Assembly (NCBI GenBank): GCA_947629595.1
Contig: CANREI010000003.1
Span: 1 to 33,651, forward strand
Direction: 5' to 3'
From: an uncultured Alphaproteobacteria bacterium
Lineage (GTDB): Bacteria > Pseudomonadota > Alphaproteobacteria > CAAHEQ01 > UBA3637
Length of the DNA: 33,651 bases
The notes under the pieces are model-generated. The model was not told where the DNA came from. It searched no databases and saw nothing but the letters and a program-made list of their open reading frames with translations. The translations under genes were made by a program, and so were the position numbers. Numbering within the stretch: the first letter of the stretch is position 1; each line of letters starts with the position of its first letter. Positions 4,872 through 27,424 of the stretch are shown here, piece after piece.

Positions 4872-7800
4872 ATGAAAATTTTGAACAGATACATTTTAAA
4901 ACAACTGATTGTTGCTTTCTTGTTGATTTTACTGGGATTAACAACGCTTGTTTGGTTAACTCAATCCCTGCGTATGATTGATATGATTGTAACCCAAGGC
5001 GTTTCGGTGCGTATTTTTATTCAAATGACTTTATTGGTTTTGCCGAATTTTTTACAAATTCTGTCACCGCTGACGTTGTTTGCCGTTATTTTATTTATTT
5101 TCTCCCGCATGCAGAGCGATAAAGAAATTACGGTTATGCAGGCCATCGGTATGTCCAACGGGCAAATTACCCGACCGGTTCTTTTACTGGCCCTGCTCTT
5201 AACGGTTTTCGGTTATATCATGACGCTGGATTTAATTCCGGCTTCCTATGCCAAACTGAATAAACTGCGTTGGCAGGTTCGGAACGATTTATCGCATCTT
5301 CTTTTACAGGAGGGGCAATTTAATTCGTTCAAAAACGGCTTAACGCTTTACATTCGCGAACGCTTATCCGACGGAACGGTTCGCGGCGTGATGGCGTATG
5401 ATGCAAAAGATCCGGAAAAAATTGCCGTGTTGGTTGCCGAAAACGGTTTGATTTTTCAGGAAGATGACGGTTTTCAACTGATTTTTCATAAAGGAACGCG
5501 TCAAGAATATAATCCGAGCACACAGAATTTTTCCATTTTAAAATTTGATAAATATACCATGTTTTTTAATGATAAAACCAATGCGGACAGTGCCAAAAAT
5601 TCAAGTGCTTCCGAATATTCTTTATCTTATTTGGCGGCGGCAACACCCGAAAGCGCACCGACACCTGCCATGTATCGCAAATATAAAGTAGAAATCATTA
5701 AACGATTGACAAAACCTTTATATAACTTAACGTTTGCCTTTTTGGCATTGTTCGGTGTGTTGGCTCCGTTTTATAATCGGCGCGGACAAATCGGACGCAT
5801 TTATTTCGTGATTTTTTGCACTTTATTGGTACAATCCGCCAACTTGGGATTGGAAAATCTGGCAACCAAAAATCTTGTTTTTTCACCTTTGTTGTTTATC
5901 AATATTTTTCTGCCCGTTATTTTGGTGTGGTTCTTTTCGAAACAACGTTCATTTAAATTTTTCCGTTTTAAAAAAGCCGTCGTTATTGCCGGATTAACCG
6001 GTGCCGTTCTCGGCAGTGCCGTGCCGGCAGAAGCACAAATTAAAATTGATCCGCAAATTAAAATTGAAAAAGATCAACCGATTGATTTTGAAGCCGATAC
6101 GTTTTCATACGATGAAAAAAACGATATCGTAACGGCTTCGGGCGATGTTATCGTTTCGCAAAACGGCACAACCGTTAAAACCGATACATTTTCTTTTTAT
6201 CGACAAAAAAACGTGGTGGTCATGCCGAATAAAGTGCGTATTTACACCAAAGACGGTACCGTAACCGATGCCGAAAACGTTTCTTTTTCCGCCGATATGA
6301 ATGATGTGTTGGGTGAGGCGGTTTTTATGCGTTTATACGAAGGATCGCTGTTAACGGCAAATCGGTTGAAACGCAAAAATGAAGGACAGGCCCTTTATTT
6401 AAAAAAAGCCGCCTACACCCCTTGCACAACCTGTGACGGCGATTCGCCTTTATGGCAAATTACCGCGCGCAATTTCAAACATGACGTTCCCGAAAAAGAA
6501 ATGATTTTTACGCACTCCTTTTTGGAGGTGAAAGACATTCCCGTTTTTTATGTGCCGTATTTAAATATTCCCGATTTTACGGTGAAACGGAAAACCGGCT
6601 TATTGGCGCCCAGCTTTTCACACGGCTCCGAAATGAAACAAGGGGTCAATCTGCCGTTTTTCGTGAATATTGCCGATAATCAAAACTTAATTTTACAACC
6701 AACCTTTGCCATCGATCATGATCCGTTGGGGGTGTTTGATTATTCGGCACTGTTTTCCCATGCCCAAGTGAATTTACAAGGCAGCGGCACACGCGATAAT
6801 GACGGCACAAATCAAGGGCATATTAAAGCCGATATGCGCTATGATTTGAACGATAATTGGCGATTCAGCGGACAATATTATCGCGCTTCAAGCGATACCT
6901 ATTTCCGGCGTTACCGTTTGCCGAATGTTAATACTTCACAGGCCTTTTTACGGTCATTCATCACCACCGAACGATTTGGCGAACAAAATTACTTTAACCT
7001 GACAGGGCTTTCTTTTCAAAGTCTTTATCGAAACGCCGATCCCAAAGCTTTGCCCGTATTGATTCCCATCTTGAATTATTCCTTGCAAACCGATCCGCTC
7101 ACGGATAACGGCTTATATGCTTTTTCGGATATTAACGGCGCCATGTATAACAACCGTTTACGGTTTAAGTCGGATCGCATTTCCTTAAATCAAGGTATTG
7201 CATTGCCCGTTGTAACAAACTGGGGTGCCAATGTTGATTTAAAAGCACAAGTGCGCGGCGATGCCTATCATGTCGATACGGGAAAAAACAGCTTTGATCA
7301 TCGCCCCAAAGACGATACGTATTCTGCCGGACGCCTGTTCCCGATTGCCTCGGCAAAAATCAGTTATCCGTTTATCAATGCCGGCACGCAAACAACGCAG
7401 GTTTTGGAGCCGATTATTATGTTAATTACGTCACCCGTCAGCGGCAATTCTTCCAAAATTCCCAACATTGACAGTACCGATGTTGATTTCGATGATACAA
7501 ATTTATTTACCGAGAACCGATTCGTCGGCTATGATCGCGTGGAAAACGGATCGCGCGCCAATTACGGCGTTCAGTGGTCTTTATATGACTATAAAAATCG
7601 CTCTTTATCCGCTTTATTCGGACAATCCTATCGTTTTTCGGGGGATGACGAATATGATCATATTGTCGGGTTAAAATCAAACTTTTCCGATTATGTCGGA
7701 CGCATGAAAATTGATTACAAAAATCTGTCTCTTGCCTATCGCTTTCGGTTAGATGAAAATACTTGGGAAGCCAAAAAGAATGAAATTTCCTTATCCGGCC

Positions 7801-8123
7801 GCGGCGGCCCCTTGCGTTTAGGGATGAGTTATACCCAACTGAAAGCGGTACGACTTGCCAATACTTTTTACAACGAAAGGGAAGAAATTTTGTTTTACGG
7901 CGCTTCAAAACTCACGCAAAAGTGGAATTTATCCGGCTTTTATCGATATAATTTGGCCAAAAACGATAAAGGACCCACGGAATACGGCGTTGTTTTACAA
8001 TATGATAACGATTGCACCGCTGTTGAGTTTGATTTAAATCGTTCTTTCACAAAAGATCGGGATTACGAAGGGGACACCTCCTTTGTCGTGAAATTTATTT
8101 TAAAAACATTGGGACAAATGTAA
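4872..8123 (+). CDS. Fused LPS export permease LptF (YjgP/Q family, aa ~1-355) and LPS assembly outer-membrane barrel LptD (aa ~389-1083)
   Basis: N-half: ILNRYILKQL, WLTQSLR, DKEITVMQAIGMS, EGQFN, six TM helices. C-half: FEADTFSYD, YTPCTTC, PLWQI, KRKTGLLAPS, NRFVGYDRVENG, YDNDC. No stop codon between the halves. Confidence 0.9.
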   Translation: MKILNRYILKQLIVAFLLILLGLTTLVWLTQSLRMIDMIVTQGVSVRIFIQMTLLVLPNFLQILSPLTLFAVILFIFSRMQSDKEITVMQAIGMSNGQITRPVLLLALLLTVFGYIMTLDLIPASYAKLNKLRWQVRNDLSHLLLQEGQFNSFKNGLTLYIRERLSDGTVRGVMAYDAKDPEKIAVLVAENGLIFQEDDGFQLIFHKGTRQEYNPSTQNFSILKFDKYTMFFNDKTNADSAKNSSASEYSLSYLAAATPESAPTPAMYRKYKVEIIKRLTKPLYNLTFAFLALFGVLAPFYNRRGQIGRIYFVIFCTLLVQSANLGLENLATKNLVFSPLLFINIFLPVILVWFFSKQRSFKFFRFKKAVVIAGLTGAVLGSAVPAEAQIKIDPQIKIEKDQPIDFEADTFSYDEKNDIVTASGDVIVSQNGTTVKTDTFSFYRQKNVVVMPNKVRIYTKDGTVTDAENVSFSADMNDVLGEAVFMRLYEGSLLTANRLKRKNEGQALYLKKAAYTPCTTCDGDSPLWQITARNFKHDVPEKEMIFTHSFLEVKDIPVFYVPYLNIPDFTVKRKTGLLAPSFSHGSEMKQGVNLPFFVNIADNQNLILQPTFAIDHDPLGVFDYSALFSHAQVNLQGSGTRDNDGTNQGHIKADMRYDLNDNWRFSGQYYRASSDTYFRRYRLPNVNTSQAFLRSFITTERFGEQNYFNLTGLSFQSLYRNADPKALPVLIPILNYSLQTDPLTDNGLYAFSDINGAMYNNRLRFKSDRISLNQGIALPVVTNWGANVDLKAQVRGDAYHVDTGKNSFDHRPKDDTYSAGRLFPIASAKISYPFINAGTQTTQVLEPIIMLITSPVSGNSSKIPNIDSTDVDFDDTNLFTENRFVGYDRVENGSRANYGVQWSLYDYKNRSLSALFGQSYRFSGDDEYDHIVGLKSNFSDYVGRMKIDYKNLSLAYRFRLDENTWEAKKNEISLSGRGGPLRLGMSYTQLKAVRLANTFYNEREEILFYGASKLTQKWNLSGFYRYNLAKNDKGPTEYGVVLQYDNDCTAVEFDLNRSFTKDRDYEGDTSFVVKFILKTLGQM

Positions 8124-8133
8124 AGGGGAAAAA

Positions 8134-9312
8134 ATGTTAAAATACGGATTGATTTTATTGATGTTATTATTCGGTTACACGGCACAAGCCGGGCAAATTG
8201 TGGCAACGGTGAATGATGAACCGATTTCCAGCTTTGATGTGGAAGCGCGCGCCAAACTTATTGCCGTTCAACGAGCGGAATATTTAAACAACAAACGAAA
8301 AGCACAATACATTAAAGAGGCGCTTGATTTAATCATTGATGAAAAAGTGAAAAACATTGAAGCCAAAAAATACGGCTTTACGGTCAGTGACGCCGATGTT
8401 GCCCAAGCTATCGCGCATCTTGAAAAGCAAAACAATTTAAAACCGGGTGAAATGAAAACAATGCTGGCCAAAAACGGTGTGCCGATTGAAGTGTTGCAAA
8501 ATCAGCTGAAAACCGATTTGTTGTGGTTACAGGTCATTCAAAAACAATATGATGCCGGTATGACGGCACTGCCGGCCGAAATTGAAAAGAAAAAACAGGA
8601 ATTACGGGCAAAACTGAGAGAAGAAGAATTTTATGTGTTTGAAATTCTCATTTCCGGCAAAAAAGAGGCCGAACAATGCTATAAAGAATTGCGCAGCGGC
8701 ACGCCTTTCGATCAAGTTGTTGCCAAATATTCCAAAGCGCCCACAAAAGATGTCGGCGGTGAAGTCGGTTGGATAAAACCCGGCCATTATTCCAAAGAAA
8801 TCACAGCTGTTTTACGGCAATTAAACATTGGTGATTTATCGGCACCGTTAAAAACCAAAAACGGTTATTTAATTTTGTTACTGCAAGAGAAAAAAACACC
8901 CCTTTATTCCGATTCCGTCACGTTATGGGAATTGGCACAAATGGCTATGCCGACAAAAGAGGCCGTTCAATTTGAAAAAGAATTAACCGCTTTAAACGGA
9001 TGTGAGTCGTTTTTAAATTTTGCCGATACGCACGCCATTAAAGAATCCGTTAAATCCGGATTGGTGGCCCCCGATCAATTACCGAACGAGCTGAAAGAAA
9101 TTTTATCCGAAGAACCCGTTAAAACAGCCATCGGCCCCGTTCGCACGCAAGATGCCGACGTATTTTTTATGAAATGTGCCATCCGAACAAAAAAAGTTTT
9201 GCCGGATGATGATATCATTAAAGCACAAATTGAAAATGACAAAATGGAAGCACTTTCCGATAAATTGTTAAGAAACGCCAAACGGTTTGTCGTGATTGAA
9301 CGGAAAAAATAA
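8134..9312 (+). CDS. surA: SurA-like periplasmic chaperone / PPIase
   Basis: Signal peptide, IVATVNDEPISSFDV, parvulin F..V.AKYS...GGEVGW motif; canonical position after lptD. Confidence 0.88.
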   Translation: MLKYGLILLMLLFGYTAQAGQIVATVNDEPISSFDVEARAKLIAVQRAEYLNNKRKAQYIKEALDLIIDEKVKNIEAKKYGFTVSDADVAQAIAHLEKQNNLKPGEMKTMLAKNGVPIEVLQNQLKTDLLWLQVIQKQYDAGMTALPAEIEKKKQELRAKLREEEFYVFEILISGKKEAEQCYKELRSGTPFDQVVAKYSKAPTKDVGGEVGWIKPGHYSKEITAVLRQLNIGDLSAPLKTKNGYLILLLQEKKTPLYSDSVTLWELAQMAMPTKEAVQFEKELTALNGCESFLNFADTHAIKESVKSGLVAPDQLPNELKEILSEEPVKTAIGPVRTQDADVFFMKCAIRTKKVLPDDDIIKAQIENDKMEALSDKLLRNAKRFVVIERKK

Positions 9313-9325
9313 AAAAAGAGGGCTT

Positions 9326-10189
9326 ATGAAAACAAAAAAAATGAAAACAAGGCTGATTGACGGTAAAAAAGCCGCCGCCGAAATTGAAAAAACTTTAAAA
9401 CAGGAAATTGCCTCTTTTTCCAAAAAGCCCGGGTTGGCCGTTATTTTAGTCGGAGATAATCCCGCCAGTTTGATTTATGTGACGCATAAGAAAAAAACGG
9501 CCGAAAGAATCGGGATTGATGCTCAAATATACCACTTATCCCCCGTTATCACGCAAGATGCGTTAATTGCGTTTATTGAAGAGTTGAATCAAAACGCATC
9601 CGTTCACGGCATTATCGTTCAATTGCCTTTACCGGCACACATCAATGAAAACGCCGTATTGGAAGCCATTTGCCCCGAAAAAGATGTTGACGGTCTTCAC
9701 CCTCAAAATTTGGGACGCTTATTTATCGGGCAACCGACACTGATTCCCTGTACACCGCTGGCGTGTTTAACGCTCCTTAAAAGCGTTTGCAAAAATCTGA
9801 CGGGAAAAACGGCCGTTGTTGTGGGTCGTTCCCGCCTGGTCGGGAAACCGACGGCACAATTATTGCTGAATGAGCAATGTACGGTGATTCAGGCACATTC
9901 GAAAACAAAGAATTTGAAAAAAATATGTCGCACGGCCGATATTATTGTTTCGGCAACGGGACACGCCGGGTTAATTCGAAAATCTTATGTGAAAAAGGGA
10001 GCCGTTTTAATTGATGTGGGAATTATTCGTCTGGCTGATAAAAAAATAACGGGAGATATGGCTTTTGATGAAATGATCGGACATGCCAAAGCCATAACGC
10101 CGGTCCCGGGCGGTGTGGGTCCGATGACCGTTATTACTTTAATGCAAAATCTGGTGACAGCCTATTATCAAAACGAAAAAAATATCTGA
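9326..10189 (+). CDS. folD: Bifunctional methylenetetrahydrofolate dehydrogenase/cyclohydrolase
   Basis: IDGK, PGLAVILVGDNPAS, GIIVQLPLP, KDVDG, PCTP, VGRSRLVGKP, ITPVPGGVGPMT; start placed at ATG 9326 (9341 also possible). Confidence 0.96.
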   Translation: MKTKKMKTRLIDGKKAAAEIEKTLKQEIASFSKKPGLAVILVGDNPASLIYVTHKKKTAERIGIDAQIYHLSPVITQDALIAFIEELNQNASVHGIIVQLPLPAHINENAVLEAICPEKDVDGLHPQNLGRLFIGQPTLIPCTPLACLTLLKSVCKNLTGKTAVVVGRSRLVGKPTAQLLLNEQCTVIQAHSKTKNLKKICRTADIIVSATGHAGLIRKSYVKKGAVLIDVGIIRLADKKITGDMAFDEMIGHAKAITPVPGGVGPMTVITLMQNLVTAYYQNEKNI

Positions 10190-10300: not shown

Positions 10301-11236
10301 ATGATAAAAGGATATCAATATTTATTTTTATCATTGGCAGGGTTTCTGCTTTGTTTTTTTATAACAACACCCGGTTTCGGACAGATGCTGATTTATGGTA
10401 TGGGTGTGGCTGCCGAAAGTGCCGAAGCCGCAACAGAAGATATGAAAACGGTTCGAAAACCCATTTCTTTGGTTAACCAGCAAACACAAGCTCTTGTCAG
10501 CGGTTTTACCGAACAACTCAACAGTTTAACCGAATCCATACAAGGGAATGTGATGGATACGGTTAATGAATATAAAGACAAAGCTAACGAGGCCATTACG
10601 GACAAATTTCAACAAGCAAACGACTGGATGGATAAGAAAAAACAAGCTGCCGATTCGTGGATGGAAGATCAGGCACACAGTGCCGGTGATTGGATCAGTG
10701 ATCAATTTTCTTCATCAAGTCCCGGATCGGGTTTCAGTTTAAGCAGCGGCACCATGAAAAATGTGAAAGGCGCCTTTACCGCCATGGGAAAATTAGCCGC
10801 GCCCGCAGCAGCTTTGGCTTCCGGCAATCTTATAGGCGGTTCGGCGGAATTGGGCAAAACGTTATTCTTGGGCAAAACAAATACGGAAGATAAACTGTCT
10901 TCTTACGACGCAACCTCCGTTCAAAAAAATGTGAAACAATACATACAAGATGCCACCGCAACAACCCTGGGCGATGCAACAAAAATCATTAACGTATCTG
11001 CTCAATACGACGGAAAAGACGGAACGGCCAAAGCAGCAAGTACGGCTGCCAACAAAGCCATTAACATTCGGGAAGATATTAAAAACGCAACGGAAATGGG
11101 CATTTCCATGAATGTTATGACGAATACGTTACTTTCTATGGATATTACCGATTTATCCATTCAAAGCGCTTTAATTTACGGAGAATTAAACAATATGAAA
11201 AACATGACCATCAAAGCTATGGGTTTGGGAGGATAA
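10301..11236 (+). CDS. Secreted helical protein, VirB5/TrbJ-like paralog 1
   Basis: N-terminal hydrophobic/signal segment, helical composition, C-terminal helical block resembling neighbours, position upstream of virB8; family call is inference. Confidence 0.55.
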   Translation: MIKGYQYLFLSLAGFLLCFFITTPGFGQMLIYGMGVAAESAEAATEDMKTVRKPISLVNQQTQALVSGFTEQLNSLTESIQGNVMDTVNEYKDKANEAITDKFQQANDWMDKKKQAADSWMEDQAHSAGDWISDQFSSSSPGSGFSLSSGTMKNVKGAFTAMGKLAAPAAALASGNLIGGSAELGKTLFLGKTNTEDKLSSYDATSVQKNVKQYIQDATATTLGDATKIINVSAQYDGKDGTAKAASTAANKAINIREDIKNATEMGISMNVMTNTLLSMDITDLSIQSALIYGELNNMKNMTIKAMGLGG

Positions 11237-11238
11237 TC

Positions 11239-12165
11239 ATGAAAGTGAGATTTTTCTTCCTAACTCTTTTTATGGCATTTTTTTCATTTAAAGTATCCGC
11301 ACAAGTACCGGCAATGGATCCGCATGAGTTGGCTCAATCGGCCAAAACATTATCAACCAGCGTTGAAGATTTGAACAAAGAAATTGATCAAACTCAAAAA
11401 GAAATTAAGCAATTGACGGATTTTGGCTCTCTCACATCGGGATTGATGTCGAGTATTCAAGGGTTTGCCGGTTTGCCGGGAACACTTTTAGATCAAGTTT
11501 TAGATGTAAACTTTTTGTTTCCGAAAAAAATCAGCGATGATGCCAAAGAAGCTTTACCGCAACAAACACAACAAAGTCAGGCCGATAAATTAACGGGGGG
11601 TGCCGCCAGTGCCGCAACAGGATTGTTAGGCGGAAGCAACAATGACAAACTTCCCGAAGGGGAAGAAGCCAAAAGCATTGCTAAATCTATGCAAACAGAA
11701 GACAGTGAAGGTTGTGTCGAGACCGGTTCCGATATTGCCGGCGCGGCACAAGATATCATCGGATCCGTTACCGGCGGTTCCGGAACAAAAAAATGTCCGA
11801 CCGGCACGGAAATAGCTGCCAAACGGCAACAACTCGGAAATTCAAAGCAGGCCTTTGCCCGATTTACGTTGGCAACCGGTTTGGTTAACCGAACATTGGC
11901 TTATCGTACAATCATTAACAACAAAAAAGAAACGCAGTCATCAACCGGCTCCGCCAACACCATTCGACAAGCGCATACCACTAAAACAACCGGCATTACC
12001 GCCATGGCGGATACTTACAATCGTTTACTTTTTTCACAGGCGGTCGGAAACGGATTACAAGCATTCAAAGCAATGGATCAAATTGAAGGCCGAATCAATC
12101 TCAGCATTCCGGTACCAACGGGCTCAGGTGATGCCTTGGGAACATTGAAAGGATTTATGAAATGA
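11239..12165 (+). CDS. Secreted helical protein, VirB5/TrbJ-like paralog 2
   Basis: Signal peptide then AQVPAMDPHELAQ (resembles the VirB5/TrbJ mature N-terminus, xPVxDxxNLxQ), followed by a coiled coil. Confidence 0.62.
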   Translation: MKVRFFFLTLFMAFFSFKVSAQVPAMDPHELAQSAKTLSTSVEDLNKEIDQTQKEIKQLTDFGSLTSGLMSSIQGFAGLPGTLLDQVLDVNFLFPKKISDDAKEALPQQTQQSQADKLTGGAASAATGLLGGSNNDKLPEGEEAKSIAKSMQTEDSEGCVETGSDIAGAAQDIIGSVTGGSGTKKCPTGTEIAAKRQQLGNSKQAFARFTLATGLVNRTLAYRTIINNKKETQSSTGSANTIRQAHTTKTTGITAMADTYNRLLFSQAVGNGLQAFKAMDQIEGRINLSIPVPTGSGDALGTLKGFMK

Positions 12166-12980
12166 AAAAACATCTGTTACTCTTATTGATCAGTTTGAGC
12201 ATTTCATCTTCCGCAATGGCGCAAGGATATGTCATTACCGAATGGATGAGTTTTGTGGAGCGAACATTACAACAGGTCACCGAAGATATTTCAAACATTG
12301 ATTTCGATGATATTCTGGGTACCAAAAAAGAAGAACAAAAATCGCAAGATCCTTCCGCCGACGGCAATCCTGCCGTTAATGAAAACGTCAGCAGCGTTCC
12401 GGTTTCCGAATTTCCGCCGTATGCCGATGCCAGTTTAAGAGCGGAATTATCAAAAGAAAACCCCTCCATTCCGACTGTTAACACACTGATTAAAGATTCT
12501 TTAACTTTTAAATCCAAAACAACGGAAAAAGAAGGCGATGCTTATTTAAAAAGCGGTGACTTTGAAGTGAAAGAAGGAACTTTAGGAACCGGCAACTATA
12601 AAACAAAGGCAAATATAACGGTAACGCCCGAAAAAACCGAAAACAATAAAAACACATTGGAAAAACAACAGGCACAAGCCATTGTTGTTTATGCCAATGC
12701 ACGGGCATTAGCACGGCGTACACTTGATTTAATTGATAAGGTTGAAGATGATACCCAAGTTATGACAAATGAAAAAAATCAAAAATCATCAACGGGGTCA
12801 TTATATAAAACAACGGCAGCGTCTTTAATTTTCAGAACGCACATGCTTTTAAATGAAATTGCAACGTTACGCAACAGCTATATTGAAATTTTATCCATCG
12901 ATACCATTCAAGGCGAAGAAGCAGCGCCTTCGGCAACGGATCAACTCACGGGAATGGTGAAAGGCGTACTGGGAAAATAA
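12162..12980 (+). CDS. Secreted helical protein, VirB5/TrbJ-like paralog 3
   Basis: Signal peptide (AMA/QG), shared C-terminal helical block, ATGA coupling to the previous gene. Confidence 0.55.
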   Translation: MKKHLLLLLISLSISSSAMAQGYVITEWMSFVERTLQQVTEDISNIDFDDILGTKKEEQKSQDPSADGNPAVNENVSSVPVSEFPPYADASLRAELSKENPSIPTVNTLIKDSLTFKSKTTEKEGDAYLKSGDFEVKEGTLGTGNYKTKANITVTPEKTENNKNTLEKQQAQAIVVYANARALARRTLDLIDKVEDDTQVMTNEKNQKSSTGSLYKTTAASLIFRTHMLLNEIATLRNSYIEILSIDTIQGEEAAPSATDQLTGMVKGVLGK

Positions 12981-12992
12981 GGAGAAAATAAC

Positions 12993-13805
12993 ATGAAAAA
13001 AACAGGATTTCTTTTAGGTCTTTTCTTATTTATTCCGACAATTGCCATGGCCGTTTGTCCGGCAATGACAACCAATCCGCCGCGAACCGTTAAAGGAACA
13101 ATGAAACAAGTTAAAAATTTCATTGTTGAAAAATACGAAGAGTTATCGGAAACGGCAGAAGAACAGAAAAAAGAAGCCAAGTCCGGCAATCAAGGGTGTA
13201 GCGCCAGTCCGCAAAACACGGCAGATCAATCCATAAAAATCAAAGTTTATGAATATTTGGCAGATAAAGTCATCGGACATGATGATGAAACGGAAGAATT
13301 TTTAACACCGACAAAAGACTTTACGGAAGCGCGGAAACAAGTTAAGGAAAAATTGTTTCAACCGGCGCCGCCGCAACTAACGGAAAGAGGCGAAAAATTA
13401 CAAGAATACACCGGTTTCAATACGCAAGTGGTCGGGCAAGTCGGAAATACGATTGATCAGGTGCGCGCCCTGCTTCGGCGAGATGAATATGCCAACGCCG
13501 TTGCTTCCAAAAACTTGGAAATTGCAACCGAATTACGTAAAAAAATATTGGAAGATATTTCTTCCACGCAACAAGCCGCAACAGACGGATGTAATCAATT
13601 GCAGGGATTAGTTTTGGAAAACAGAAATTTAGGTGCGTTGGTGGCCGAAACGGCTTCCGATATTACCATTCAAATTTTAACACTTGAATCTATGGCTGCC
13701 CGAAACCTGCAAAAGGAAGAAATTTCTTTGGTGCCGGTACCAAAGGTACCCAAAGCAAACAAAAACGGCGATCAAACGACAAAACTCGGCGGAATAGTAA
13801 AATGA
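12993..13805 (+). CDS. Secreted helical protein, VirB5/TrbJ-like paralog 4
   Basis: AGGAG RBS, signal peptide (AMA/VC), shared C-terminal helical block. Confidence 0.55.
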   Translation: MKKTGFLLGLFLFIPTIAMAVCPAMTTNPPRTVKGTMKQVKNFIVEKYEELSETAEEQKKEAKSGNQGCSASPQNTADQSIKIKVYEYLADKVIGHDDETEEFLTPTKDFTEARKQVKEKLFQPAPPQLTERGEKLQEYTGFNTQVVGQVGNTIDQVRALLRRDEYANAVASKNLEIATELRKKILEDISSTQQAATDGCNQLQGLVLENRNLGALVAETASDITIQILTLESMAARNLQKEEISLVPVPKVPKANKNGDQTTKLGGIVK

Positions 13806-14647
13806 AACCGAAGGAGAACAAAAAAATGAAACAAATGAAAAAAGGGCTTTTTTATGTATCGACAGCTTGTTTTCTTGTGTTTTCGAGCTTGACGGCTTAT
13901 GGCGAATGTCTTGTTTTCCCGCCGGTTTGTCCGATTGAAATGTGCGGATATCAAACACAGGATAATCCGGGCGAACAAATGCTTCAAAAAACGGTTTCCA
14001 CCTATAAACAAACCAAAAAGGTCATTAAAACCGCCCGAAAATCAATCGATCATATTGTCAGTATGGCAACTTCTTTACCGGGTACCATATCCAGTTTGGT
14101 TTTAAAAGCCATGACATGGCCGTTTAAAAAACTCGGTGACTGGTTCGGATTGACCGAAGATGCCGTTGATGAAGATACCCAAGGCATTACGCAAGATAAT
14201 TCTCATGGCGACATCAGTATCAGCGAACGGATTACCCGCGATTTAAAAGCTTATGCCACCGAACCGCAAACAGCTGTTGAAGTGAAAGAATTCAATCAAC
14301 AACGGCGGAAATATATTCGGCAGCAGGCAACCATTACGTTAATGGCGCGCGTTTTAACGCTTAAAGCAAGGCTTAACGATATTAAAGATGTTATGGAGGA
14401 AACAAAAGCACAAGTTCAAAAGAATGTGTCTGCTTCCGGCGGGGATCCGAGCAAAACATACAACGAATCTGCCTTAATTAAAACCAATTACGAATTAAGA
14501 CAAGCGTGGTTTAAATTATTGGCTATTCAACGGCATATCGAAGCCGTAAAATTGGAGTATGCCGCCAATCAGGCCATGGCGGGTATGAAAATGATTAAAA
14601 CAGTGCCGACAGTTGCCGGTAATGACAAAAACAGCAAAACAAAATAA
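13802..14647 (+). CDS. Secreted helical protein, VirB5/TrbJ-like paralog 5 (start may be ATG 13826 after AAGGAG)
   Basis: Signal peptide (AYG/EC), Cys-containing mature N-terminus, shared C-terminal helical block. Confidence 0.55.
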   Translation: MKPKENKKMKQMKKGLFYVSTACFLVFSSLTAYGECLVFPPVCPIEMCGYQTQDNPGEQMLQKTVSTYKQTKKVIKTARKSIDHIVSMATSLPGTISSLVLKAMTWPFKKLGDWFGLTEDAVDEDTQGITQDNSHGDISISERITRDLKAYATEPQTAVEVKEFNQQRRKYIRQQATITLMARVLTLKARLNDIKDVMEETKAQVQKNVSASGGDPSKTYNESALIKTNYELRQAWFKLLAIQRHIEAVKLEYAANQAMAGMKMIKTVPTVAGNDKNSKTK

Positions 14648-14656
14648 GGGGGTTAC

Positions 14657-16324
14657 ATGAAGTACTCAACACTTTTATTAACAGGATTTTCACTCTTCGG
14701 GTTTATCACGGGTCTGCCGCAAACGGCATCGGCACAGTTTTCACAGGTAGAACCGTATATTGAAGAAGCAAAACCGGTTAAACCGGTTGAAAATTACAAA
14801 AATTCAATGATTCGGGCAATGGCACTTCATAACATTCAGTTTCAAATTAACTATATGTTAAATTCACTGATTCCCTCTTTAAAAGAAGAACAAGAAAAAC
14901 GGGATTTATCCGCAGCGCAAAACAAAGCGTTAAAAGAGTGCACAATTTTATCGTTATCAAATGTTTACTCTAATGCGGAAGAAGCCTATAACAACATTCA
15001 GTCCGCATTTAACGACAAAGTGAAAACCATAACGGTTTATATTAACGAAACCGGCGATACAACGGCCGATACGGATAACGCCGAAGCCTATCCTTACTGG
15101 CGGGTTGGTCGCGAAGTATTAACAGATGTTTATGAAAATCCGGAAAAATACGGGCAAAAGAAAGCAGATTTCCCGTTGTGGACAGATCAAAAATATCTTT
15201 ACACACAAGGGGTGAATGCTATTTTATCGGATATTCATAATAAGTTTACATTGCCCGAATCAAACGGAAGAACGCAAATTCCCCAAAATAAAGCCTTTAA
15301 TGACAAATTGGCGGAATACTTAAACGCTTTTTCACAACAAAACGGTATTTTAAACACGTTGGATTATACCCAAAACAGCAAAAAATACTCCGACCTGTTA
15401 AATTATTTAAAAGAACACCCGAAATATGAAGCATTAAAACAGAATGTAATGCCTGCTTTACCGCCATTGCCGAAACCCTTACCGCCGTTCTATGAAATGA
15501 TTCAATTAACCGAAGATCCGGCACAAAGCGGCACCATTTTCCCCGAATGGCCGGCACCGTGGGCAGAATATATCCGTCGGGGGTTGGATAAACGCGCGGT
15601 CGGCGGTGAAATGGATACCTGTTTCCTGCCCAAGTCCATTACGTTACGACCCGATGTCAGAAACTGGGATAAAACAAAAATTAACAACCGTCTTTCTTTG
15701 ACAAAAGAAAAAGAGGAAGAATTAGCCAATTTCCAAGCAACCGTTGCCTCGGCACAAGAAAGTTTGTTTAAAACCGTTGACAGCATTAACCAGGCTTTAA
15801 CCGAAAACGGCTTTACGCAACAACTTGATTTGGAAAAAATCTATCTCGACAACAAGTTTGATAGAATCAGCCAACTTGATTTGGAAAACACAAACACGAC
15901 AGAAATTCAAAAAATTGTAAAAGAAGCCAAAATGGAAGCCATTCAAAAAGGGTTGACTTTGTTTAAGCAAACGCCTCAAACCGTTAATGCAAACAATCCT
16001 TCCGTTGAATTATCATTGAATATGTTGGGCGATATGGATCCTAATTCCGAAGAATATAAAGACATGATGGATAAAATGAATGCCGCTCAATCGGCTTCCG
16101 ATGAAAAGTTTTTGAATGATATGGCACAAGACAGTGACGGTATCGGCTTACAAAGCAATTTATCAACAAATGATGCCGCTCAAAATATTGAAAGCCAAGA
16201 ATCTCAATATGCTTTACAAAAAGAAACCTTTGAAGAAGCCAAAAAAGAAAGAGTTGTATTGTGGCAAACGCCTATTGATAATGAAACGTGTATTAACGGT
16301 GGCGTAGCTTCGGCAAAGCCTTAG
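14657..16324 (+). CDS. Secreted hypothetical protein (555 aa), T4SS-associated
   Basis: Signal peptide (ASA/QF), helical, Pro-rich hinge PALPPLPKPLPP, 18 bp upstream of virB8. Confidence 0.75.
   Translation: MKYSTLLLTGFSLFGFITGLPQTASAQFSQVEPYIEEAKPVKPVENYKNSMIRAMALHNIQFQINYMLNSLIPSLKEEQEKRDLSAAQNKALKECTILSLSNVYSNAEEAYNNIQSAFNDKVKTITVYINETGDTTADTDNAEAYPYWRVGREVLTDVYENPEKYGQKKADFPLWTDQKYLYTQGVNAILSDIHNKFTLPESNGRTQIPQNKAFNDKLAEYLNAFSQQNGILNTLDYTQNSKKYSDLLNYLKEHPKYEALKQNVMPALPPLPKPLPPFYEMIQLTEDPAQSGTIFPEWPAPWAEYIRRGLDKRAVGGEMDTCFLPKSITLRPDVRNWDKTKINNRLSLTKEKEEELANFQATVASAQESLFKTVDSINQALTENGFTQQLDLEKIYLDNKFDRISQLDLENTNTTEIQKIVKEAKMEAIQKGLTLFKQTPQTVNANNPSVELSLNMLGDMDPNSEEYKDMMDKMNAAQSASDEKFLNDMAQDSDGIGLQSNLSTNDAAQNIESQESQYALQKETFEEAKKERVVLWQTPIDNETCINGGVASAKP
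15821..15888 (+). repeat. 17-bp exact direct repeat within the 555-aa gene
   Basis: caacttgatttggaaaa at 15821 and 15872 (QLDLE twice, 51 bp apart). Confidence 0.7.
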
Positions 16325-16342: not shown

Positions 16343-16984
16343 ATGTCTTTTTTCAATTTCAGTTCCCAAGGATTGATTTACGGGTTAAGTGAAAAATTAG
16401 CCAAGTTTTGGATGATTGTTACTTCAATTATCATCGGAATAAACTTGTTTTTAATTTTAACACTGCTGCAAATGGCACCGAAACTGCAAGTTGTGGCGCA
16501 GGTGTTAACATCTTCCCCGATGACGTCTGTTCAGCTGTTGCAAACGGAACCGTTTTCACAAAGCACCAGTGATAAGAAACTGATTGATGAAACCATTTTA
16601 CGTTTTTATCTTGATTCGCGCTATAATACCTTTCAAGATAAAGATGAAATGAATTATCGGTGGGGACCGAGCGGACCGGTTGCCTTTTTTTCATCACCCG
16701 CTGTTTACCGAGCATTTACCACCGGATTAAGCGATAAAATTACGGCCATTTCTCACAATAAATCTTCAACCAGTATCGATATTATTTCCGTTTCCCGCAT
16801 TGATAACATTTATACGGTTGAGTTTGATGTCTATACATATATTCGCGGGCAAGTTTCAAAAAAACGCCGAATTGCCGTTGTGGAAGTCGCTTACAGTCCG
16901 GCACGACGGTCATTTAACACCATTCATTCCAACCCGTTCGGTATGTATATTCAAAAATTCACGGAAACAATAAAAAAAGAATAA
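16343..16984 (+). CDS. virB8: Type IV secretion inner-membrane protein VirB8 (copy 1)
   Basis: Single N-terminal TM, FYLDSRY, SSPAVYRAF, terminal NPFG motif. Confidence 0.8.
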   Translation: MSFFNFSSQGLIYGLSEKLAKFWMIVTSIIIGINLFLILTLLQMAPKLQVVAQVLTSSPMTSVQLLQTEPFSQSTSDKKLIDETILRFYLDSRYNTFQDKDEMNYRWGPSGPVAFFSSPAVYRAFTTGLSDKITAISHNKSSTSIDIISVSRIDNIYTVEFDVYTYIRGQVSKKRRIAVVEVAYSPARRSFNTIHSNPFGMYIQKFTETIKKE

Positions 16985-17247: not shown

Positions 17248-17952
17248 ATGCCAAATCAGGATCAACCCATCGAGCAAAATTCTCAAATCGTCTATGAAGG
17301 CGATATTTCGGAAGAAGCCGTTACGGAACGTCGCTATTTATGGATGGCGCGAACGTTTGCGTTGGTTGCGGTTGTTTCTTTTTTAAGCACGCTGATTTTA
17401 TTGATTGCTCTTTTTTCGCTGTTACCCATTGTGCGTGTGCAACCGTTTTATTTAACAACGCTGAACAAAGAACAGCAGGTTATTCGGGTGGTGCGTCCGA
17501 ATTTTAATAATATCAATATGCAAATGTTAAGCGAATCGCTGATTCGGCAATATTTGTTGGCGCGAATGACGGTTAATTCCAATATTTCCGAAATGGAACA
17601 ACGTTGGGGCATTGACGGCATTATTAACTGGATGAGTTCACCTGTTGTGTTCGAAGAATTCGGTCGAACGGCAGAAGCCGCACTGAATCAGGCACGAAAC
17701 GACGGATTAACTCGTGCCGTTAAAATTTTGAACATTACACCCTACCGAACGGAAAAAAACGGAACGGCCATTTGGCGGGCGGAAATTGAATTAACCGATT
17801 TAAAATACGGTGATTCCGAACCCGTGCGCTCTTTATGGCAAATTACATTGCGTATTCGTTTCAAACCGACTCGGCAGGGGTTAAAATGGGAACAACGGCT
17901 TAAAAATCCGCTCGGATTTACGGTTGAAAATTTCGGTATTCAACGAAAATAA
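17248..17952 (+). CDS. virB8: Type IV secretion inner-membrane protein VirB8 (copy 2)
   Basis: TM followed by LLPIVRVQPF, IRQYLLAR, MSSPVVFEEF, KNPLGFTV. Confidence 0.88.
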   Translation: MPNQDQPIEQNSQIVYEGDISEEAVTERRYLWMARTFALVAVVSFLSTLILLIALFSLLPIVRVQPFYLTTLNKEQQVIRVVRPNFNNINMQMLSESLIRQYLLARMTVNSNISEMEQRWGIDGIINWMSSPVVFEEFGRTAEAALNQARNDGLTRAVKILNITPYRTEKNGTAIWRAEIELTDLKYGDSEPVRSLWQITLRIRFKPTRQGLKWEQRLKNPLGFTVENFGIQRK

Positions 17953-18059
17953 GTGCTTTACATAAAAAAATAACGGCAAATTGCATTTTTTTCTAGACTT
18001 TTCATCTCATTTTGGTCTATTTTATATACAGGATTGTAATTTTTACGAGGAGAAGGCTT

Positions 18060-19733
18060 ATGCTGAAACAAAAATCAAACAAATTCCGTTGGCTGACCGG
18101 TGTTGCATTGGCAACATTTTTTGCAACAAGCGCAACGGCCCAATCAATCTTACCCGCCAACACACAGGCCGAACAATTAAGCGATGCCATTGCGCAAACA
18201 AACGGCGAATTTGATTCGGTGAATTTGGATTACATCCATTCACTGGGTATGCAACAAAAAGCATGGAACGATCCGTTATCACACATGGGCGAAGGACAAT
18301 CCAAACCGGGCTACTCAAAATACACCTGGACGCCTGATGTGATTTTACCCATTCGGCTGCGGGAAGGAATGATGACATTGATTAACCTGCCCACCTGGGA
18401 ATTGATTGAAAAAGTGCATATCGGCTCGCCCGAATCTTTCGGCGGAGAAATTGCTGCCCCCAACTCTTTATTGGTGTATGCCGATCCGTCTTACTTAGGT
18501 GTTGACAGTAATATGATTATTTTCGGACGGTCGGGCAATCGCTACGTTTTCTATTTGCGTTCGGAAACATACAACACGGATAAAATCACGCAATCCGTTG
18601 TTGATGTGTTGGTCGGCCCGCGCTATACGCCCGTTGAAAACGGCGGAAAACTCGGAAATTTTAACGGCGCCTCGATTACGGCTGCCGGTTCAAGCGGATT
18701 GGGCGGTACCGGTTCTGCCAACTGGGCCAGCGGAAATCGAGGTAATGCAAGCACGCCGCCCTCTTCTTCCGGCGGTTCAACCGGCCCCAAAGATTGGTTA
18801 AAAACAATTCCCGTTGATCCGGAAAGTTTCCATTTTGATATTGATATGTATTTACCGAATCCGGAAGATGTTGACATTGCGCCCGATAATATTTGGCGCG
18901 ACAACATTTTCACCTATATTGATTTAGGGCCGAAAGCCTTAACCATGACGCAACGCCCGATTGTTAATCTGGTTGTGCAAGATACGGAAGTACCCGTCGG
19001 ATTTCGCACCAGCGGCCCGAACAGCCGTCTCATTATTGTTGAAGGCATCGGCGATATGGTGTTAAGGAACGGAAAAAAACTGATTTGTTTAAAACTGCGT
19101 CGTGATCCGGCTTCCGGTTTGGAATACACCGATTACAGCGGTGCGCAAAGCAACTCGATTACACATCCTTCTACCATCAGTAAAGAACCGGCAGATATTA
19201 TTCCGTCCAACGTGATGGCCCCGTCGCAAAGCAGTCTTGCCATGGCGAATAATAATGCCACTCAAATTGAAAAATACTTTAACAGCGGCGCTGTCGCCAC
19301 ACCCGCGGTTGCCAATGCACCGCAAAGTGCGGCCGTTATTTATGATCAAAATATGGCACCCCTGCCTTCCATTCCGGCCAATGTCATGAAATCGCCGGCA
19401 GCATCGGCAAACATTGTGGGAGTCATTAAAGATGTGGCTACTCCCGGCCCGTCAACCTCGGCCGCAACCGACAAAGAAACTATTTCCATTGAATTGGGCA
19501 CAAATCCCGATATTTCCGAATTAGAAAGTATTTGGGAATCTATTTATGCGCAAAACAAAGACACATTAAACGGTTATGAACCTTATTATTCGGTCGATAC
19601 AACCGCTGACGGCAACGTTCGGGAGTTATTCCGGTTACGGGTCGGTCCGGTTAAAGATATTCAAACAGCCGATAAGCTCTGTAAAAAATTGGGACGTAAA
19701 GGTTTTTCGTGTTCTGTTATCCGTGTTCAATAA
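18060..19733 (+). CDS. virB9: VirB9/TrbG outer-membrane core protein with C-terminal SPOR domain
   Basis: ATG 18060 after GAGGAG; signal peptide; PIRLREGMMTLI, SNMII..RYVFYL, PDNIWRDNIFTYID, MVLRNG..ICL; C-terminal FRLRVGP..ADKLCKKL...GFSCSV. Confidence 0.85.
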   Translation: MLKQKSNKFRWLTGVALATFFATSATAQSILPANTQAEQLSDAIAQTNGEFDSVNLDYIHSLGMQQKAWNDPLSHMGEGQSKPGYSKYTWTPDVILPIRLREGMMTLINLPTWELIEKVHIGSPESFGGEIAAPNSLLVYADPSYLGVDSNMIIFGRSGNRYVFYLRSETYNTDKITQSVVDVLVGPRYTPVENGGKLGNFNGASITAAGSSGLGGTGSANWASGNRGNASTPPSSSGGSTGPKDWLKTIPVDPESFHFDIDMYLPNPEDVDIAPDNIWRDNIFTYIDLGPKALTMTQRPIVNLVVQDTEVPVGFRTSGPNSRLIIVEGIGDMVLRNGKKLICLKLRRDPASGLEYTDYSGAQSNSITHPSTISKEPADIIPSNVMAPSQSSLAMANNNATQIEKYFNSGAVATPAVANAPQSAAVIYDQNMAPLPSIPANVMKSPAASANIVGVIKDVATPGPSTSAATDKETISIELGTNPDISELESIWESIYAQNKDTLNGYEPYYSVDTTADGNVRELFRLRVGPVKDIQTADKLCKKLGRKGFSCSVIRVQ

Positions 19734-19787: not shown

Positions 19788-22700
19788 ATGCAAGGAAACA
19801 AAAGAACAAGCTCGTCAGAGCAATATACAAAAAAAAGCAACCGTACACTCTTATTCGGTGGCATCATTTTACTGCTCGTTTTTTTAACGATGCTTGTTTT
19901 AATGTCGAACGGCAAAAAAGTTCAGGAAGAAGAGCAAGAACCGGATTGGACAAATACTCAAATTGAAGAACGGGAACAAGAAATTCAAAACGGTGATCCC
20001 TTTTCCAGCGGTGATGCCCAATTAAAAGCGGAACCGGCTCAAATTGAAATGAATAATGTTGTGTTGGGCTCCAAAGTGGAAGCTATTTTAACCTTAACGG
20101 CGGAAAAAGCGCCCATCCAATTCAAAAAACTTGAATTTGCCCAACAACAGGCCGACGGGTTTACAACGGAAACAACCTGTTCGCCCGATACACCGATTGA
20201 AGTCGGCAAAAATTGTATTGTGAAAGTGTTATGGAATCCCATTGCCTTGCAACAACTTCAAAATAACCTGGTTATCACGTGGAAAGAAAATTCAACACGT
20301 GTGATTACCGAACAAACAACAACCGTTGTTGTTAAGGGGCAATCCACCGATTCAAAAGATTGCGTTATTTGCGAAGATATTCGGAAAAAAGAAGCCGTTG
20401 AACCGAAAATGGCCATGGGTTTAAACGGAGAGATGTATCCCATTAACGCGGACGACAACACCATTACCATTGACGGGAAAAAGGTTCACATGACCGAAAA
20501 CGGTGTCTTTATTGATGAAGAAGGGAACATTGTTGCCATTGCTCCGCCGGAATATATTGCTTTAAATATGCAAAATGAGCTGATGGGAACGGTTTCCGAC
20601 ACAAATGAAGTGATTGATGCCAACGGTGAAAACGTGGGAAAAACATTGGGTGATAAAACCATTGTCGATTCCAAATTAACCGTTTTAGGGGCGGCGGTTC
20701 CCGTTTTGTCCGTTATGGATACCCAAGGGAAAGTCATCGGTAAAATGACAAAAGAAGGAACGGTTGTTGACGGATCCGGCACCGTTATCGGCAAAGTTTG
20801 GGTTGATCATCAGGTGTTTTCCATCGACGGGCAATTTATGGGCTATATTCGCCCGTGGGGATTGGTTGCCGATTTTTCGGGAAAAATTCTCGGTGCCATT
20901 ATTCCGGACGGAACCGTTATTAACGGTAAAAACGAAACCATCGCCAATATTACGCCGAACGGTTTTGCCATCAATGCCCAAGGAGAGCTGATCGGTGCAA
21001 CCATTCCGGAAGGCGTGGCGGTCGGCCCGGGTTGTCAATCGTTGGGAAAAGTGTTGCAAAACGGTGATGTACGGGATTCTTACGAACAAGTCATCGGAAA
21101 AGCTTTAATTGACGGCACAATCGTCAACACGGCAAACGAAGAAATCGGTTCCGTTATTTCACAAGGGTTGGTTATTAACGAAAAAGGCGAAGTCATCGGT
21201 TATGTCAATTCCGAAGGAAAAGCCGTCAGCAATGCCGGAAAAGTCATCGGTTGTATCAATCCCGACGGCACCATTTCTGCCGGTAAAAAGTTTATCGGTG
21301 CCGTTTTAAGCAAAGGGCATGTCATCGGCTATTCCTGCGGAACAATCGGAACGGTTTTCCCTTCCGGTGAAGTGTTTAATAATGCCTTGCATCCGGTGGG
21401 ACGTGTTATGCCGGACGGACTTGTTAAAAGCGCCGAAAATAAAATTATCGGTATGGTGGTAACGCGGGCGGCTGCCGTGGCCGACGGTTGTCGGTTATTG
21501 GGACTTGTTTCCGTTAACGGGCAAGTGTTGGATTTGGCCAATCAGCCCGTCGGTTGTGTTACACCGGAAAAAACGGTTATCAATGATAAAGGCGACGTGT
21601 TGGGCAGTTTGGCACCGCGCGGCGTTGTTCATAAAGATGACGGAACAGTGCTGGGACGTATTCGTTTAGACGGTAAAGTTATGGATATGGAAGGCAAGGT
21701 TATCGGTTGTGTGAATGCGGACGGCTCCGTTACTTCTTTAACGGGTGAAATTCTGGCACAAGCCCCGACCAAAGACGGTATTATTATGGGAGATGACGGG
21801 AATCCGACCGGTTGGACAAGAGTCGGAAACGATATTATTGATCAATACGGGAATAAAATCGGAACGGTTAACAAAAATAATGCTATTGTCGATGCAACAG
21901 GCAAATATATCGGCTTTATTCCGCCCGACGGCTCTATTTTCTCTCCGGACGGATTGATTTTAGGTCGCTATTCCTCCAAAGTCGGATATGCGACCAATCA
22001 GGCAAACGAACGATTCGGAAAAGTGTTGTCGAATATGGTTGTTGTCAGTGCCGAAACGGGGGAAGTTGTCGGCGGTCTCATTAAAGATAAAACAACCTTT
22101 ATCAATCAAGCCGGACAAATTATCGGCACGTTAACGGCGGAAGGTATTTTAAAGAACACCGCCGGTGAAGTGGCGGGAGCGGTTCGCGGTGACGGAACGG
22201 TTATTGACAAAGACGGCAATATTATCGGCTGGCAAGTGCCGACGGGTGATGTGTTTTCAACAACCGGAAAATTTGTGGGAACGGCCATGGAATCGGGCGA
22301 AGTGTTTTCAACCGGTCACACAAAAATCGGAACAATTCTCGGAAACGGCATTGCTATTTCGACGGACGGAAAAATTTTAGGCGGTGTCTTGCCCAAAATG
22401 GCGCTGGCTATGGATGCCGACGGACTTGTCGGTTATTTGGCGCCCGACGGAAAAGTAACAAACACAACGGGTGCCGTTGTCGGACAAGGATCACCGTTCG
22501 GGCCGGTTATTTCTCCGGAAGGAGCGGTTATTGCCAAACTGGTCGGTTTAAATGTGTATGTTGATGCCCACAACAAAACCGTCGGCTGGGTATCGTTTGA
22601 GGGAACACTTAAAAACAAAGAAAATCGTGATATCGGTTTCGTAACCCCGAACAGAATGGCTTTCGATAAATCAAATCAATTGTTGGGATCCGAAATTCAA

Positions 22701-26434: not shown

Positions 26435-27424
26435 ATGGGCGAGTTATCAATTTCAGATACATATCGGGTATTAGAATCCGCACTGCGTCCGCTTTCTTAT
26501 TGGTATAATCAAGATAACGTGGAAGAAGTGGCGGTTGATTCGCCGGGCGGCATTTGGCTGCGTCTGCGCGGCAAACACACCTATCCGTGGCACTATTATG
26601 AAGATCCGAAACTCACACGAGAATATTTGAACAATATTTTATATATTATTGCCAACTCTTACGATTATGCTTTTGATCCCGATCAAGGCACGCCTGTTGT
26701 TTACGCAACGCTTCCCGGCGGACACCGTTTTACGGGCATTGCCGGACGAAACGTGATGTATGATAATAACGATTTAACGGGCGGTATTGCCTTGGCCATT
26801 CGTATTTATCGGGAAGACTTATCCATTTCCATGAGTGATTTCGGTATTCAGCAAGGCGCACGGCTTCGGCCGTTAAACCGATTAAAACAGGTTGAAGATC
26901 CGGATGATCCGTTCGATCGATTATTGCTCTCCATTAAACGCGGCGATCACGTTTTGGTCAGCGGGGCAACGGCAACCGGTAAAACAACGTTTTTAAATAA
27001 CCTGATTAAACTGTTGGATCCGCATAAGCGCATTTTAACCATTGAAGATACGCGCGAATTAATTGTGCCGCATAAAAATCGGGTGCATATTGTGTTACCG
27101 CGTACGGAACTCACGAACAAGTTTGACTATAAACGCGTGATTGACTTGGCGGTACGCTTTACGCCCGATGCCATCATCGGCGGTGAAATTTCCACTTCGA
27201 ATGCCGGTGCTTTGTGGGAATTGATGGGATCCGGTCACGATAACTGCTTTGCCACCATTCACGCCGAAAGCCCCGAAGCGGCCTATAAGGCGTTTATCGG
27301 GCGTATTTTACACTCTTATCCCACAACCGATCGGGAAAAAACCTATCGGGAAATGAAAGAGAAATTGCGTGTTGTTCAAATCAATCGTGACGGCAACATT
27401 CGGGCGGTTACGGAAGTAACTTAA
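26435..27424 (+). CDS. virB11: Type IV secretion ATPase VirB11
   Basis: Walker A VSGATATGKTT, Asp box ILTIEDTREL, Walker B PDAIIGGE, His box SGH...ATIHA. Confidence 0.9.
   Translation: MGELSISDTYRVLESALRPLSYWYNQDNVEEVAVDSPGGIWLRLRGKHTYPWHYYEDPKLTREYLNNILYIIANSYDYAFDPDQGTPVVYATLPGGHRFTGIAGRNVMYDNNDLTGGIALAIRIYREDLSISMSDFGIQQGARLRPLNRLKQVEDPDDPFDRLLLSIKRGDHVLVSGATATGKTTFLNNLIKLLDPHKRILTIEDTRELIVPHKNRVHIVLPRTELTNKFDYKRVIDLAVRFTPDAIIGGEISTSNAGALWELMGSGHDNCFATIHAESPEAAYKAFIGRILHSYPTTDREKTYREMKEKLRVVQINRDGNIRAVTEVT

Follow-up and report, generated by a model that had tools for sequence, protein, structure and literature searches.

The VirB5 subunit of type IV secretion systems (T4SSs) is currently seen as the product of a single gene; as a homopentamer it would start the growth of the pilus on VirB6 and make contact with the target cell. 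In the R388 system the VirB5 pentamer rests on one of VirB6, as outlined in PMC9259494, and the VirB5 cap is pushed outward as the pilus tip according to the outlines given in PMC9259494 and PMC12857230. Several VirB5 genes for one T4SS are known from the Trw system of Bartonella, where trwJ (VirB5) and trwL (VirB2) occur in multiple copies; as summarised in PMC12857230, these copies are sequence-variable and thought to give variant pili, and VirD4 is lacking. In H. pylori, neighbouring genes encode the exported proteins CagL, CagI and CagH, which in the summary of PMC3164655 form a pilus-biogenesis subassembly, are needed together for pilus biogenesis, have a short C-terminal motif in common and differ in their mutant phenotypes. 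The DNA considered here, a window of 33,651 nucleotides (GenBank assembly GCA_947629595.1, contig CANREI010000003.1, positions 1 to 33,651 of the forward strand), is contig C3 in the metagenome-assembled genome (MAG; 1.34 Mb, 77% complete) of an uncultured alphaproteobacterium. It carries a tandem array of five genes, W1 to W5 (Table 1), whose products are very probably all homologs of VirB5, as judged from family profiles. We see about an even chance that these VirB5-derived paralogs fill the virB5 slot of the system and assemble as one mixed stalk or tip. The VirB5 family is known; what is new here is the array of four to five ancient tandem paralogs in one T4SS.

The link to VirB5 is most direct for W2. 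In a PDB sequence search the W2 profile found TrwJ/VirB5 of R388 (7o3v_A, E 6.3e-4) as its top match, in an alignment that spans the signal peptide, a ‘Q-(V/I)-P-x-x-D’ motif and helix 1. The start of W2, ‘QVPAMD’, is the conserved VirB5/TrbJ N-terminal motif, and the initial annotation had rightly recognised a VirB5-like beginning in one of the five proteins. W2 thus has the signal peptide, the mature N-terminal motif and the long helix 1 of a VirB5, and resembles TrwJ (R388) and TraC (pKM101), members of PF07996, in its Sec signal, in the mature ‘(Q/G)-(V/I)-P-x-x-D’ motif followed by a long helix, and in a C-terminal helical hairpin. By eye, the mature starts of W4 (Table 1) and W5 (‘VCPIEM’) resemble that of W2; those of W1 and W3 in the window have diverged there. 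A HMMER search of 1.84 billion representative sequences with the W2 profile (cut-off E<=1e-3) gave 158 matches. When 150 sequences, 149 matches and W2 itself, were scanned with Pfam, 20 were positive for PF07996 and 5 for DUF4141. Four of these proteins, P0167, P0168, P0180 and P0177, clear the PF07996 cut-off over their entire length and were retrieved with whole-library E values of 1.6e-13 to 3.9e-10, matching positions 2-237 (P0167 and P0177), 16-237 (P0168) or 21-237 (P0180) of the 260 positions of the profile. On these profile matches, W2 is a full-length VirB5 relative. As a separate observation on the motif, in an unrelated alphaproteobacterial T4SS locus (L096, 2196-3629, - strand) a VirB1-like lytic transglycosylase beside VirB5 has an internal VirB5-type motif, ‘AQGVPTQD’.

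All five families were compared by HHalign, as profiles without signal peptides, with a test set of 21 VirB5 proteins that were either PF07996-positive or taken from a VirB5 alignment. W2 matched this set at 97.8% over 209 columns and W3 at 94.8% over 204 columns, followed by W4 (94.5%, P 8e-8, 117 columns), W1 (85.1%, P 6e-6, 109 columns) and W5 (75.8%, P 2e-5, 100 columns). The product of the adjacent gene W6 reached 0.9%, and reversed profiles gave P>=0.19. Against all 88 remote VirB5-like proteins, W1 to W5 scored 95-99% (W4 98.1%, W5 95.3%), W6 0.5%. The proposal, made earlier from the letters of the window and its open reading frames (ORFs), that these are five highly diverged VirB5/TrbJ-like secreted paralogs is therefore borne out at profile level. 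With the VirB5/TrbJ family they have in common a size of about 230-310 aa, a virB-type operon position upstream of virB8 and the profile homology of all five. They differ in that W1 to W5 lie below the Pfam cut-off, in that the N-terminal halves of W1 and W5 are unrelated, and in their number, since the known systems have one VirB5, a homopentamer in the outline of PMC9259494, and here there are four to five ancient paralogs per system.

The five families are also related to one another. Ortholog profiles, for which some 50 syntenic loci from the whole order were used, were aligned by HHalign after removal of signal peptides, with reversed profiles as controls. Shallow profiles of 10 orthologous sequences had matched mostly via their signal peptides, which is why deeper, signal-less alignments were used; an unconstrained iterative hidden Markov model (HMM) search, in which the families recruited each other, was set aside as evidence, signal peptides or drift being a possible driver, and the ortholog families were then set by best-family iterative assignment and controlled HHalign. 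W1 and W2 matched at 96% (P 3e-9; 97.8%, E 8e-13 over 126 columns in a second run) and W3 and W4 at 95.3% (P 2e-8, 208 columns). Between these pairs the values were 83% for W1-W3, 80% for W2-W3, 72% for W2-W4 and 68% for W1-W4. W5 was linked to W2 at 35.9% (P 4e-4) and to the others with P 0.002-0.007. Pairs with W6 all gave P>=0.3 and reversed profiles P>=0.04. The matches are collinear and all lie in the last 100-130 residues, so that the two-helix C-terminal layout noticed beforehand in all five proteins is real at profile level. As far as these alignments tell, W1 to W4 have a C-terminal domain of at least about 110-130 residues in common, and W5 probably has the same domain. The all-vs-all comparison thus interlinks W1 to W4 and, more weakly, W5.

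Several observations weigh against this interpretation. Compared in pairs as single sequences, the window proteins are no more alike than expected by chance: blastp and phmmer, run all-vs-all, gave noise, with a best blastp E of 0.02 in a six-sequence database. A Pfam scan gave nothing for W1, W2, W3, W5 and W6 and one sub-threshold chance match for W4, and all five array proteins stay below the Pfam and NCBIfam cut-offs of PF07996, TIGR02791 and TIGR02780. Among them NCBIfam matched W2 alone (TrbJ_Ti, 20.1 bits vs a cut-off of 100.55). Within the W2 family VirB5 (TIGR02791) and TrbJ_Ti were the commonest NCBIfam matches, with 3 of 27 members each and a best E of 1.9e-5, below cut-off; for the W3 family VirB5/TrbJ matches amounted to 0 of 37. 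PF07996 searched against the whole genome gave nothing at E<=1; a class-wide search with it was positive in only 2 of 201 genomes. The VirB5 test set was drawn from W2-profile matches and may be biased to W2-like VirB5s. W1 and W5 match VirB5 over their C-terminal ~100-130 residues only, W5 is linked only weakly with the four remaining families (P 4e-4 to 7e-3), and W5 reached only 15.7% against 13 remote proteins that are unmatched by the W1, W3, W4 and W5 family HMMs. A narrow roseobacter-type VirB5 profile (Neff 2.5) matched W2 over 36 N-terminal columns only and did not match W1. To these points come a structure search that does not discriminate and array sizes that disfavour a strict one-of-each pentamer, both described below. 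Further searches added little: the W4, W5 and W6 profiles matched nothing meaningful among PDB sequences, a word-indexed search with the W5 profile gave 25 proteins, all without a Pfam family or informative source name and none from outside the lineage, and DUF4141 and PF07996 clusters found for W5 and W3 in the ESM Atlas at 0.86-0.90, below the level that counts, are leads only.

The initial annotation had called for AlphaFold models and a Foldseek comparison with VirB5, TrwJ and CagL. The protein modelled was W2. The AlphaFold2 model (mean pLDDT 69.5, pTM 0.52) has long helices at residues 28-61, 189-238 and 242-283, the latter two corresponding to the C-terminal two-helix layout, and a middle part that is of low complexity and poorly defined. 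The helix layout of the model is that expected of VirB5. The fold search with the same model did not discriminate: Foldseek returned nothing at E<=0.001, and TrwJ was tied with many unrelated helical hairpins. Prediction of a complex of W3, W5 and W4 gave a high score, and one control scored equally high, so that the prediction counts neither for nor against binding.

The array itself is old and well retained. W2 relatives were found in 11 of 41 related genomes, all of the same genus, and nine same-genus loci and one truncated locus hold all of W1 to W6 in the same order. Of 80 genomes from the order, 77 have VirB8b. With 40 further upstream regions added, best-family iterative assignment over 50 loci placed 47 ORFs in W4, 47 in W5 and 46 in W6. 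Five VirB5-like ORFs make up the array at 28 of 47 loci; the other loci have four members (12 loci), three (3), six (2) or none (2). In one of the two six-member arrays the W5 ortholog is broken into ORFs of 105 and 190 aa (L062 of G008, oriented 5617-6503), by a frameshift or an assembly error. The 12 four-member loci, together with the 3 in which three members were detected, speak against a strict one-of-each pentamer. Because arrays of four members have a single gene for the W1/W2 pair, the duplication into W1 and W2 seems to be more recent than the others; probably there were four genes in the ancestral array, which would have become five by the later split of W1 and W2. As judged from the ortholog groups, the paralogs are ancient, 1:1 orthologous and fixed in gene order: each stands much closer to its orthologs in other genera than to the other paralogs, and across the loci we saw no lineage-specific bursts or homogenisation within the groups.

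Selection was estimated by comparing the window with the three relatives nearest to it, a comparison that had likewise been suggested at the outset. The dN/dS values were 0.10-0.27 for W1 to W5, 0.18-0.25 for W6, 0.07-0.10 for folD and 0.02-0.04 for VirB8b and VirB9; in the same genomes, the five array genes are 33-89% identical, vs 57-99% for VirB8b/VirB9. These values mark W1 to W5 as real genes on which selection is purifying yet relaxed.

The description of the array as five tightly coupled genes for proteins of 270-311 aa at 10301-14647 agrees with the ORFs and their spacing. The junctions from W1 to W5 consist of a 2 nt gap, a 4-nt overlap, a 12 nt gap and a 4-nt overlap, followed by 9 nt to W6. 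A scan for promoters and terminators was indistinguishable from shuffled sequence. Ortholog alignments (9/9) begin at residues 4-16 of the W5 ORF, and for this reason M9 (13826) is the more likely true start of W5. The N-termini of W1 to W6 are signal-like, as had been claimed for the five of the array, and in each of W1 to W5 a basic stretch is followed by a hydrophobic stretch and a small-residue site; in a Kyte-Doolittle scan W1, W2 and W4 exceed 1.6, and W3 and W5 are less hydrophobic. Of the similar amphipathic tails reported for four of the proteins, the presence in the window was confirmed (W1 to W4 end in short Gly-rich basic tails), but not a conservation throughout the family, as the tails of W1 to W3 are kept among same-genus orthologs only.

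How could such an array function? In our reading, W1 to W5 are Sec-exported, mostly helical proteins that all descend from VirB5/TrbJ, and the array takes the place of virB5 in the chromosomal T4SS of a clade of uncultured Alphaproteobacteria that have small genomes and are represented by MAGs only. Since the duplications, each paralog has remained a separate ortholog group, and the gene order has stayed fixed. The paralogs would be non-interchangeable and produced together, as their close spacing points to translational coupling. They may form one mixed VirB5 stalk or tip complex, and the VirB6 platform below it may be just as mixed. W2 to W4 would retain the N-terminal helix that docks on VirB6; W1 and W5 carry diverged N-terminal halves. 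A mixed VirB5 cap is the mechanism that we tentatively favour, somewhat short of an even chance, because ancient paralogy, strict retention, fixed order and tight spacing suggest non-redundant subunits that are made together. More speculative is an asymmetric stalk, in which four to five VirB5 paralogs would take defined positions of the pentamer on a platform of at least three different VirB6 paralogs. If this were true, it would be the first obligate hetero-oligomer to replace the symmetric VirB5-VirB6 stalk of the R388 type, and would have a parallel in type II secretion and type IV pili, whose minor-pilin tips are heteromeric. The minor pseudopilins and pilins (GspH-I-J-K) are tandem-encoded, paralogous small exported subunits whose heteromeric tip primes fibre assembly; the likeness is one of analogy only, as fold and machine are different, and no homology is claimed.

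Candidates for a mixed platform are present in the same genome. On another contig, at G000:C13:9924-14887 (locus L094), three polytopic membrane paralogs are encoded in tandem; they are 509, 444 and 685 aa long, and the 685-aa member has a weak TrbL/VirB6 match. All 41 genomes of the family that were searched contain matches to the 509-aa paralog, which in the genomes inspected lie at several neighbouring positions. This trio of VirB6-like paralogs fits a mixed VirB5 stalk or tip. Genes for VirB4, a VirB2-type pilin and VirD4 lie on other contigs. The arrangement recalls the rvh T4SS of the Rickettsiales, which is also chromosomal and scattered, belongs to small-genome alphaproteobacteria and has two VirB8 genes and several tandem VirB6-like genes. 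In rvh, VirB6 is multiplied, VirB8 and VirB9 are duplicated, and no VirB5 is known, an absence that the initial annotation states as well; in the present clade, by contrast, VirB5 is the multiplied component.

The main alternative, which we regard as possible but rather unlikely, is that one working VirB5, namely W2, perhaps together with W3 and W4, forms the stalk or tip, and that the other members have become specialised pilus-associated, surface or secreted proteins such as adhesins or assembly regulators, comparable to CagL, CagI and CagH. It would account for the nearly full-length VirB5 alignment of W2, W3 and W4 only, W1 and W5 keeping the C-terminal hairpin, and for the four-membered loci, by which five members are not obligatory; the operon neighbours CagH, CagI and CagL, with their differing mutant phenotypes, offer a precedent. 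Retention of all members in fixed order and tight spacing across the order, however, suits subunits of one complex better, Pfam recognises no added domain on any paralog, and dN/dS is similar in all five. The parallel to Cag has its limits as well. Where the Cag proteins have a short C-terminal motif in common, W1 to W4 have Gly-rich basic tails that are similar among themselves and genus-restricted, and no sequence or fold link to the Cag proteins was found (CagL has Foldseek rank 46, E 1.8, with the W2 model); unlike the case of Cag, the mutual homology of the five is shown directly here.

Very improbable, in our estimate, is an interchangeable repertoire of tip proteins with antigenic or host-range variability, as proposed for the TrwJ copies of Bartonella and considered for the present array as a set of exchangeable adhesins when it was first annotated. 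The five genes do evolve several times faster than VirB8b and VirB9, and the multiple sequence-variable VirB2 and VirB5 copies of Trw show a T4SS with such a set, as summarised in PMC12857230. Recent variable copies of the Trw type were not found in the array, though: its paralogs are relatives at profile level and less similar to one another than to their orthologs, which form 1:1 groups across genera in an order that is fixed throughout an order-level clade. In addition, gene-wide dN/dS indicates purifying selection, and VirD4 homologs are present in the genome, unlike in Trw. That the five have no kinship with VirB5 at all, but are helical exported proteins of other origin that produce profile matches through their helical and low-complexity composition, would suit the failure to reach any curated family threshold, the noise in pairwise comparisons and the generic hairpins of the fold searches, but is hardly credible given that real pairs reach P values of 1e-5 to 1e-13 where the helical, secreted W6 stays at P>=0.06 against every W family and the VirB5 sets and reversed profiles at P>=0.04, that the matches are collinear, and that the W2 profile retrieves PF07996 proteins from the whole library.

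The array is of interest beyond this locus. A clade that keeps four to five VirB5 and several VirB6 paralogs at order depth is a natural test of stalk and tip heteromery, of the VirB5 surfaces that are indispensable, and of tip diversification. The clade consists of widespread uncultured Alphaproteobacteria known from MAGs only, several of them gut-derived according to their record titles. Names can now be given to genes that in our searches had neither a Pfam family nor an informative source name, and a ‘missing VirB5’ in diverged T4SSs can be an artefact of threshold-based annotation. Cryptic VirB5s are topical, because TraH of the F plasmid has been reported as a hidden VirB5 in the summary of a 2026 preprint (10.64898/2026.07.31.741991). 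No literature pairing ‘VirB5’ with ‘heteropentamer’ was found, and none of the papers listed in our literature searches describes such a VirB5 array in its title or abstract opening.

Table 1. Array genes and flanking genes in the window
Gene	Position	Strand	Description
folD	9296-10189	+	111 nt upstream of W1
W1	10301-11236	+	311 aa; VirB5-like recognisable in C-terminal two-helix domain only
W2	11239-12165	+	308 aa; full-length diverged VirB5/TrbJ homolog by profile
W3	12162-12980	+	272 aa; VirB5-like paralog, W4 nearest
W4	12993-13805	+	270 aa; VirB5-like paralog; mature start ‘VCPAMT’ resembles W2
W5	13802-14647	+	281 aa; most diverged; VirB5-like over C-terminal ~100-120 residues
W6	14657-16324	+	555 aa; secreted, family unassigned, not VirB5-like
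VirB8, two genes	16343-16984 and 17248-17952	+	PF04335, E 2e-13 and 4e-15
VirB9 with C-terminal SPOR peptidoglycan-binding domain (CagX domain)	18012-19733	+	Pfam/NCBIfam matches
VirB10	19788-26393	+	2201 aa, beta-flower repeats; Pfam/NCBIfam matches
VirB11	26435-27424	+	Pfam/NCBIfam matches

The sixth gene, W6, follows the array in every case (46 ORFs in 50 loci). Its product has no match in Pfam and no sequence match in the PDB; Cys95 and Cys545 are invariant and the core is rich in Pro and Trp. Further downstream, VirB10 has a long run of beta-flower repeats (PF21785, PF21784, DUF3659) ahead of its TrbI domain. Outside the array, a remote VirB5-like profile gave a weak match at G000:C19:18964-19701 (E 2.7e-4), maybe the VirB5/TrbJ of a second system. 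Upstream of folD, an ORF of 1083 aa at 4872-8123 appears by eye to be a fusion of an LptF/G-type permease half with an LptD-like outer-membrane half.

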